In this document: one piece after another, positions 13,091-14,631 of the stretch | Layout: every line of letters begins with the position of its first letter | Numbering within the stretch: the stretch's first letter is position 1 | UHGV virus genome: UHGV-1542943 | Strand: one strand, 5' to 3' | Origin: a virus | Length of the DNA: 29,523 nt | Program-made: the position numbers and the translations under genes | Notes under the pieces: model-generated | Told to the model about the DNA's origin: nothing | What the model saw: only the letters and a program-made list of their open reading frames with translations | The model's database searches: none

Positions 13091-13905
13091 TCTTTATTTT
13101 TATCCTCGAAACCTGATAATCCAGATAGAACACCAAAGTTATTAAAAACGTCTGGCTTACCAGATTTTAATCCGGATAAGTTGTGTTGCTCCAAAAAGTT
13201 GCTAATTGTTTGGCCGTTGCCAAGTGCAAGACTTTTTATTTGAGGTTTTTCAGGGTATTTGAGTTTGTATTCGTCGAAATCATTTTGGAGGGTCTTATAT
13301 GCCTCATTCATTCTTCCCAGAGTTTCCGATATCTCTTTTAATGAATGATTTAGAGCTGCTAACTGAGCACTGGCGGATCTCAATTCGTCATCTTTAGCTT
13401 TCAACTCGGCAGTCAATTCCCCCATACTATTCTTTGATCGAATAATCTCTTCTTTCATCTCTTGGATGTCTTTTTCCGCGCCAGTCTTAACTTTGTCGTA
13501 TGTAACATCTTTTTTAGCCAATAACCTCTGCAGTCTGGTTTCACGCTGGATTTTTCTTGCCTTCAGGTGATTTTCGATTGAGTCATTATTATCAAGAGGC
13601 TTTGCTTGCCATACGTTAATGATATTGTTTACCCATGGTAATAGGCAGCAGATAGCAATTACAGATAAGCATGGATAAAACATAACAGTTTTCCATGTGC
13701 TGTTATCTGAGATATATGAAATTTTATCTATTATGTTTGATTTGCTAAAAAATAGATAAAGAATTGATTTCCAGTTGAAGGCGCACCAGGACATAACAAA
13801 AGCACCAAGCACAGGGTTTTTGGCTCGATTCACGGCAGTATTGGCAGTAGATAAAAACAGCTCTTTGAACGATTCAAACATGCTAATTACCTTGAAGTTT
13901 TTCAT
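13087..13905 (-). CDS. AT-rich cargo gene: membrane protein (two predicted TM helices) with a long C-terminal coiled coil
   Basis: About 272 aa from ATG at 13905 (alternative ATG at 13881); hydrophobic segments VLGAFVMSWCAFNWKSILYLFF and VMFYPCLSVIAICCLLPWVNNIINVW, then a K/E/L-rich heptad region. Visibly AT-rich against its flanks; convergent with and overlapping the TerL stop. Confidence 0.55.
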   Translation of the reverse strand: MKNFKVISMFESFKELFLSTANTAVNRAKNPVLGAFVMSWCAFNWKSILYLFFSKSNIIDKISYISDNSTWKTVMFYPCLSVIAICCLLPWVNNIINVWQAKPLDNNDSIENHLKARKIQRETRLQRLLAKKDVTYDKVKTGAEKDIQEMKEEIIRSKNSMGELTAELKAKDDELRSASAQLAALNHSLKEISETLGRMNEAYKTLQNDFDEYKLKYPEKPQIKSLALGNGQTISNFLEQHNLSGLKSGKPDVFNNFGVLSGLSGFEDKNKD

Positions 13906-13909
13906 GATT

Positions 13910-13924
13910 ATACCTTTAAGGTAA
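13910..13924. promoter_or_regulatory. Near-perfect operator ATACCTTTAAGGTAA overlapping a promoter-like element for the cargo gene
   Basis: On the minus strand reads TTGATG...TTACCTTAAAGGTAT-AAT with a TATAAT-like -10; if this promoter is used, the ATG at 13881 is the more likely start. Confidence 0.45.
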
Positions 13925-13940
13925 TTTGCGGTCATCAAGC

Positions 13941-13964
13941 AAAAAAATGCCCGGCGAACCGGGC
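13941..13964 (-). terminator. Rho-independent terminator between the tRNA and the cargo gene
   Basis: Hairpin GCCCGG-cgaa-CCGGGC with a T7 run on the minus strand. Confidence 0.6.
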
Positions 13965-14127
13965 GAACTGGAAGCAATGAGTTATGCCTTCCGTGGCTGT
14001 ACTGGTTTACAGCATGAAGTCATCGCAATGGCGTCCTGCTGTAAAAAGGGCGGTGATAGTCCTTCAAGGGAAACCATCACCGCGAAGCACCTGGAACTTC
14101 TGGCATCACGGTCCTTAGGCGTGATTC

Positions 14128-14204
14128 TGGCGTGGCATGCAGGATTCGAACCTGCGACCAACCGCTTAGAAGGCGGTTGCTCTGTCCAACTGAGCTAATG
14201 CCAC
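14128..14204 (-). tRNA. tRNA-Arg, anticodon UCU (reads AGA)
   Basis: 77 nt, folded by hand: acceptor stem GTGGCAT/ATGCCAC, D-stem GCTC/GAGC, anticodon stem ACCGC/GCGGT with loop CTTCTAA, T-stem GCAGG/CCTGC with loop TTCGAAT, discriminator G, encoded CCA. Confidence 0.85.
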
Positions 14205-14526
14205 AACGCTGAGAGCACTTAGCCTGTTAATGCGCCACACTTTGTCGCAGCTCCATAAATGCTCTCATCGTTGTACCCTCGTCTCTTCCGAGGCGTCACA
14301 CCGAATCGCCGGGATGGTGAATCCCCGTGCGCGGAATAAAACCGCTCGACTTGCACATTCCGGCTACCTGGTTCGTTTGCCCGAGCAAGGGAGGGTGCCC
14401 CTTAAACGTATCCTGACCGCTATCGGCGCATGTGCCATACGCCGTACTGCTCAAAATAAAAGCTCACTCCACCTGTTCAATTTAACGACAAGCCAGTCAG
14501 GTTAATAACCGGAATGAACCATTTAC

Positions 14527-14541
14527 TTACCCTAAAGGTAA
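14527..14541. promoter_or_regulatory. Operator TTACCCTAAAGGTAA (perfect)
   Basis: About 90 bp upstream of the 14632 gene; followed by GGTAATAAT. Confidence 0.6.
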
Positions 14542-14631
14542 TAATTTGTGCGTTAAATGTCAACTATCTACGATAAATAAATCATATATGGTTAAATTGG
14601 TAATAATTTAATTGCGTACGGAGTCATTGAT

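Follow-up and report, generated by a model that had tools for sequence, protein, structure and literature searches.

Salmonella phage epsilon15 and phages phiV10, TL-2011b, phiv142-3 and ZX5 are classed in the genus Uetakevirus, and roles have been assigned to several epsilon15 virion proteins: gp4 is the portal, gp7 the major capsid protein and gp10 a minor capsid protein described as a 'molecular staple' (PMC12391199). The arrangement of a complete element can be read from the intact prophage of Escherichia coli PAR (NZ_CP012379.1), which lies directly after guaA. There, the integrase and early genes are followed by the genes for the small and large terminase subunits (TerS and TerL), a convergent hypothetical gene and a tRNA-Arg gene. 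The order continues with a 68-aa gene, portal, a 98-aa gene, peptidase, major capsid protein, Bbp16 cement protein, a 111-aa gene and the gp10 staple, and then with a 201-aa tail gene, an 823-aa tail gene, two small internal virion proteins and proteins of 915, 1129 and 283 aa. Morons follow the gene for the 283-aa protein and precede the tail fibre or tailspike. Defective, or 'grounded', prophages that arise by deletion have also been reviewed (PMC6379469 and PMC7744054).

Here, we compare these systems with a 29,523-nucleotide stretch of DNA (UHGV virus genome UHGV-1542943), the whole of which is called the window below and which occupies the same integration site as the PAR prophage. With a probability of roughly 0.93, we interpret the window as an epsilon15/phiV10-like (Uetakevirus) temperate podovirus prophage of E. 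coli, located at the 3' end of guaA and made defective by a single internal deletion of 7,330 bp.

Results

Affiliation and integration site of the prophage

When positions 10900-17000 of the window were compared with phage records using megablast, phiV10, TL-2011b, phiv142-3 and ZX5 matched with 95-97% identity and epsilon15 with ~81% identity. Nucleotide similarity and synteny extended over the early, packaging and virion modules as collinear blocks with phiV10 and PAR, and the segments shared with them were 95-99% identical. The order of the genes was also that of phiV10, epsilon15 and PAR: integrase, early genes, TerS and TerL, a variable slot, gp3, gp13-gp17-like genes, tailspike and lysis genes.

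The left end of the window (1-55, plus strand) holds the 3' end of host guaA, with its stop codon at 51-53, and the 13-bp attL core AGTGGGAATGATT at 43-55. Window positions 1-3044 align with 9051-12094 of the PAR locus sequence (L002), in which guaA ends at 9103. A P4-type tyrosine integrase adjoins attL (246-1496, plus strand; phrog_1 integrase, E = 3e-87); it is full length, its 416 aa equalling the PAR and phiV10 integrases, and the element is present in an att-bounded, integrated form. The window, which is identical (100%) to ENA metagenome contig ERZ28577339 scaffold_634, is the left 29.5 kb of this guaA-type prophage and ends exactly at the stop codon of the tailspike gene. The full virion module of the genus (portal gp4, major capsid protein gp7, gp10 staple, adaptor and nozzle) was not found. 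Because its virion module is incomplete, the element is a defective derivative rather than a functional member of Uetakevirus.

In comparison with PAR, the window is without 7,330 bp that extend from the middle of gp3 to about codon 591 of the nozzle gene. The remaining differences are of the ordinary mosaic kind and lie in the recombination module (3044-4773), the region 8561-10274 and the morons (23602-25174). The recombination module (3041-4776, minus strand) encodes a single-strand annealing protein (phrog_2449) and an exonuclease VIII-like DUF3799 protein. At the corresponding position PAR has a RecT/YqaJ pair instead; the window module is nearer the phiV10 version, an example of mosaic module exchange.

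Genes retained in the window

The preliminary description of this DNA had recognized TerS, TerL, internal virion proteins and a tailspike, and the PHROGs and Pfam searches bore this out. TerS (10944-11618, plus strand) matched phrog_51 (E = 2e-58) and Pfam Terminase_2, and its region was 95% identical in nucleotides to phiV10 1-2186. TerL (11615-13090, plus strand; phrog_2, E = 1e-52) is full length at 491 aa, the length of phiV10p02. The internal virion proteins occupy 15479-22654 on the plus strand. Two small ones, a gp13-like protein (15479-15943) and a T7 gp14-family protein (15943-16518), are intact, have the lengths of their PAR counterparts and matched phrog_308, phrog_418 and Pfam T7_gp14. 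Two large internal virion or ejection proteins of 915 and 1129 aa (16518-22654) are likewise intact, with the PAR lengths and 99.35% nucleotide identity; their matches were to phrog_1044, phrog_992 and phrog_342, the last of which is labelled 'internal virion protein with endolysin domain'. The tailspike (26752-29523, plus strand) is a complete, closed ORF of 923 aa with a Pfam Peptidase_S74 match, its stop being the last codon of the window, and it is named 'tail fiber domain-containing protein' in its E. coli cluster.

The remaining large ORFs encode the integrase, the single-strand annealing protein, the exonuclease, a repressor and replication proteins. Outside the lesion described below, the genes match their intact counterparts in length, including those for the integrase, an AlpA-like regulator, the repressor, replication, TerS and TerL, the ejection proteins and the tailspike.

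Several features lie upstream of the tailspike. A Bro-N antirepressor-like gene (24439-25149, minus strand) has directly upstream of it Rfam matches to C4 antisense RNA (25198-25281, minus strand; 66 bits) and isrK (25308-25382, minus strand; 58.6 bits). This arrangement resembles the c4-ant immunity module of the P1/P7 type, here inside a Uetakevirus prophage. At 25547-26275 (plus strand), a 242-aa protein of phrog_6762, with weak C-terminal matches to endonuclease VII and Lar-like zinc-finger families, is found in some relatives only. Eight base pairs, TTTTCCAT, are missing at window position 23839 and are present in the isolate and Logan versions of the element introduced below (L027 6841-7386). 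Their loss frameshifts a 181-aa gene with a Pfam YafO_toxin match (E = 1e-5), leaving the window ORFs 23600-23926 and 23799-24164 (minus strand); the indel is either a real toxin-inactivating mutation of the metagenome strain or a sequencing error. A 59-aa ORF (24112-24291, minus strand) precedes the toxin-type gene and may encode an antitoxin.

A moron cassette between TerL and gp3

Between TerL and gp3 lies a low-GC insert (13091-14631), the interval to which the preliminary description had attached the absence of portal, scaffold and major capsid genes. It holds an ORF on the minus strand (13087-13905) that encodes 272 aa from an ATG at 13905, has 36.9% GC and matches phrog_4780, a family of unknown function (E = 8e-137). 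The ORF is convergent with TerL, overlapping the TerL stop codon by 4 bases, and in its predicted product a coiled coil comes after two hydrophobic N-terminal segments. No Pfam match was obtained for it, and PADLOC and NCBIfam gave weak coiled-coil matches only; those pointing to an SMC/DndD/LmuB-type identity were weak and were read as coiled-coil noise. The same cassette includes a tRNA-Arg gene with anticodon TCT (14128-14204, minus strand), found by ARAGORN and scoring 73 bits against the Rfam tRNA model, and PAR and several Uetakevirus phage records have a tRNA-Arg annotated in this position. A promoter-like site (13935-13907) and terminator-like hairpins were seen on the minus strand. 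As a whole, the cassette (13087-14204, minus strand) looks self-contained, with its low GC, promoter-like site, membrane and coiled-coil protein and tRNA-Arg(TCT). The cassette represents ordinary variation at a moron slot of Uetakeviruses and did not contribute to the loss of the head genes.

A 7,330-bp deletion removed the head module

To search the window for head genes, we translated the ten genes that separate tRNA-Arg from the small internal virion proteins in PAR and used them as tblastn queries. Only two of the ten gave matches, and both were partial: residues 1-49 of the gp3-like protein (14632-14778, 100% identity) and residues 590-823 of the tail nozzle (14775-15476, 98.7%). For the portal, Bbp19-like protein, protease, major capsid protein, Bbp16, gp9-like protein, gp10 and adaptor-like protein, the best E value against the window was 0.13. 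The absence of portal, protease or scaffold, and major capsid genes from the window that had been noted in the preliminary description is thus upheld; its placing at 13091-14631 is not, as that interval holds the unrelated moron cassette and the lesion lies at 14779|14780.

The extent of the loss was determined by comparison with the intact PAR prophage. Two collinear blastn blocks were obtained, in which window 10274-14779 corresponds to L002 19375-23880 (98.6% identity) and window 14774-23602 to L002 31205-40033 (99.35%), and 7,330 bp of PAR are missing between them. The blocks overlap by 6 bp, TTACCG (14774-14779), and a three-way alignment placed TTACCG at both PAR breakpoints, with the deletion junction at 14779|14780. 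For 200,000 breakpoint pairs drawn at random from the PAR late region, the probability of a microhomology of at least 6 bp was 0.0018. The junction fits RecA-independent illegitimate recombination or replication slippage, a mechanism suggested by the junction itself.

Both breakpoints fall inside genes. The left one lies at codon 49/50 of the 68-aa gp3-like gene and the right one at about codon 591 of the 823-aa nozzle gene, out of frame. The gene after the insert, which had been suspected of being frameshifted and damaged, is indeed a 97-aa fusion pseudogene (14632-14925, plus strand): gp3-like codons 1-49 (14632-14778) run into out-of-frame nozzle sequence up to a chance stop, and the ORF matches phrog_831 over residues 1-49 only, the intact gp3-like gene encoding 68 aa. 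The rest of the nozzle gene (14780-15479, plus strand) is a 3' remnant that covers residues ~591-823 of 823, has no start codon of its own and matches only the C-terminal part of the tail protein profiles phrog_15566 and phrog_376. The element therefore shows what defines a defective prophage: genes missing relative to collinear intact relatives and truncated genes at the junction.

The content of the missing segment in PAR was assigned from PHROGs, Pfam and PDB profile matches, the Pfam families being Head-tail_con, Phage_Bbp19, GP7, Bbp16 and Gp10-like. The segment encodes the portal (Head-tail_con, E = 7e-188; PDB 8ck0 'Portal protein', E = 7.5e-179), a Bbp19-like protein (Phage_Bbp19), a head protease (phrog_458 'protease', named 'peptidase' by NCBI) and a gp7-type major capsid protein (GP7, E = 1.5e-149; epsilon15 gp7 in PDB 3j40, E = 3.9e-85, and also 3j4u). 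It further encodes the Bbp16 cement protein (Pfam Bbp16), a gp9-like protein, the gp10 staple protein (Gp10-like) and a 201-aa adaptor-like tail protein that matched tail protein phrog_394 and, more weakly, a tail tubular protein. The segment is completed by the initial 590 codons of the nozzle gene (72%); the full-length nozzle protein matched PDB 8ck1 'Tail Nozzle' with E = 6.5e-216.

The right end of the element

The sequence to the right of position 29523 was read from a deletion-bearing Logan contig, SRR15338130_79. After the tailspike, this contig carries a 264-aa ORF, two holins, a GH19 endolysin, a DUF2514 Rz-like gene, an att repeat and host yfgI/yfgH, and no head genes. An attR, which the preliminary description had proposed to look for, was found: the 13-bp core seen at attL is repeated at position 15765 of the deletion-bearing contig L027, after the Rz-like gene and before yfgI. 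The same right end is present in PAR and in twenty other intact relatives, in which the head genes sit between TerL and the nozzle. The element measures ~32.5 kb, and its intact relatives ~39-40 kb. The 264-aa ORF is convergent (L027 12878-13672, minus strand), with a weak hexapeptide-transferase match below the Pfam cut-off (E = 9e-5); it occupies the slot of the phiV10 O-antigen acetyltransferase and possibly has a serotype-converting function.

Carriers of the deletion

The exact 97-aa fusion protein is encoded on ENA and Logan assembly contigs, and a 41-base junction sequence is carried by the isolate assembly GCA_017757965.1 (contig AAZTVC010000005.1, 166.5 kb). Between the isolate and the window, 2 mismatches and one 8-bp indel were counted over 22.7 kb; over 19 kb, SRR15338130_79 shows 0 mismatches to the window and the same 8-bp indel. 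The exact 915-aa and 923-aa proteins were found on seven contigs, which represent at least two independent samples and not necessarily seven, as some Logan runs may be raw data of NCBI isolates. Deletion-bearing contigs were reached by look-ups with the tailspike and the 915-aa protein, both of which are sufficiently specific; look-ups with the Bro-N and 59-aa proteins, which are too common, returned intact relatives only and served as a survey of gene order.

The junction was sought in larger collections. With a 601-bp junction query, the two halves were joined in 0 of 5,426 complete E. coli genomes, 551 of which have the halves apart. A 6.1-kb query, which would also catch similar deletions with different breakpoints provided that the halves end up less than ~3.5 kb apart, likewise retrieved no record joining them among these 5,426 genomes. 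The junction 27-mer had 0 exact matches in IMG/VR viral contigs, GTDB species representatives and JGI metagenome contigs. As the isolate assembly, Logan SRR15338130 and the ENA metagenome contig share the junction, the deletion is real rather than a product of assembly, and it characterizes a narrow, nearly clonal E. coli lineage.

Discussion

The ancestor of this element was probably a complete Uetakevirus prophage at guaA in which one deletion joined codon 49 of the gp3-like gene to about codon 591 of the nozzle gene, the TTACCG microhomology having presumably been used in RecA-independent illegitimate recombination or replication slippage. The deletion looks recent, because all other genes are full length; it cannot be dated, because no exact intact parent was found, the closest right-flank match among complete genomes having 99.5% identity. 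Since then, the element has been passed on vertically within a narrow, nearly clonal E. coli lineage. Judged by its gene content, it should on its own be unable to assemble a capsid or the adaptor and nozzle of the tail; it should still confer immunity and can probably excise, replicate and lyse the cell.

Other explanations for the missing head genes were weighed against a deletion. As the window derives from a metagenome assembly, the segment might have been lost in a chimeric join or a collapsed region, but an artefact of this kind is hardly credible when the same junction occurs in the 166.5-kb contig of an isolate assembly and in a separate Logan assembly; these versions can be told apart from the metagenome contig by 2 SNPs and an 8-bp indel and therefore come from different data, and a 6-bp overlap is far too short for an assembler mis-join. 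That the head module was displaced or destroyed when the low-GC insert was acquired, as had been suggested, is almost certainly wrong. The insert does lie directly upstream of the damaged gene, and its composition is foreign (36.9% GC versus 47.3% for the window); however, intact PAR has the same minus-strand ORF and tRNA-Arg between TerL and gp3, followed by gp3, portal and capsid genes, so the cassette is not the cause of the loss. Moreover, megablast matches that span the cassette in one piece top the list of 848 E. coli records, the collinearity of window and PAR continues for 148 bp past the insert to 14779, and the gap between TerL and gp3 is a known variable slot in which phiV10 has different genes. 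Another earlier suggestion, that the head genes are present in an unusual order to the right of the tailspike, drew on the window stopping at the tailspike stop codon, which hides what follows. It is refuted for the junction-bearing SRR15338130_79, which passes from tailspike to lysis genes, att and yfgI/yfgH, and has a negligible probability in general, given that the twenty intact relatives with this right end have a head module located between TerL and the nozzle.

The element had also been described as 'defective or helper-dependent', and here the two parts of the claim fared differently. It is defective, the 7,330-bp deletion having taken the head module, the adaptor and most of the nozzle; a satellite-like way of life, in which its own terminase, ejection, tailspike and lysis genes would be combined with portal, capsid, adaptor and nozzle proteins supplied by a Uetakevirus infecting the same cell, appears very improbable. 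Such use of a helper would be compatible with the full length of the TerS, TerL, ejection protein, tailspike, integrase, replication and lysis genes, with a genome of ~32.5 kb that, being smaller than the ~39-40 kb of its relatives, would fit a helper capsid, and with the existence of helpers, as Uetakevirus prophage matches occur in ~550 of 5,426 complete E. coli genomes. Against this, the borders of the missing segment lie inside two ORFs, out of frame, at a 6-bp microhomology, and a fusion pseudogene and a start-less nozzle fragment were left behind. Recurrence of the architecture in diverged lineages was not observed, as the carriers examined are almost identical: it is known from one nearly clonal lineage, occurs in none of the 5,426 complete genomes, and the 27-mer across its junction had no exact match in any of the three large collections scanned. 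Genes for capsid redirection, helper sensing or interference did not turn up among the window ORFs, which in PHROGs, Pfam, NCBIfam and PADLOC matched only ordinary phage functions or unknowns common to intact relatives; the lack of such matches is a weak form of evidence. Prophage immunity would, in addition, be expected to block a helper with the same repressor. Occasional rescue or complementation by a related helper phage, or by recombination, may occur. It is very doubtful that the head-less derivative has been kept because it can parasitize related Uetakeviruses; if this were true, its own TerS and TerL would, on heteroimmune superinfection or co-induction, package the 32.5-kb genome in helper capsids bearing its own tailspike, and the element would be a satellite in the making, only just derived from a complete phage.

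A deletion-derived defective prophage remains the preferred reading, and the comparison with described systems is in keeping with it. Enterobacterial defective (cryptic, 'grounded') prophages likewise are without essential morphogenesis genes, have truncated genes at their borders and are inherited vertically. The classical cryptic prophages DLP12, e14, Rac and Qin are much more decayed than the window element, which differs from them in having a single lesion and all other genes at full length. Satellites (P4-like elements, PICIs/cf-PICIs and PLEs) resemble it in having no capsid genes and in needing the virion proteins of another phage for packaging. Unlike satellites, however, the window is without a conserved dedicated architecture and identifiable hijacking genes, keeps the full phage set of regulatory, replication, terminase, ejection, tailspike and lysis genes, and has accidental borders inside genes.

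The phage genus, every gene involved and deletion-derived defective prophages are all already known, and the importance of the finding beyond annotation is little. Prophage predictors and surveys of tailspikes or host range should score the element as defective. It offers what appears to be a clean example of a single microhomology-mediated deletion turning an intact temperate phage into a defective prophage, and complementation experiments could make use of it as a natural substrate.
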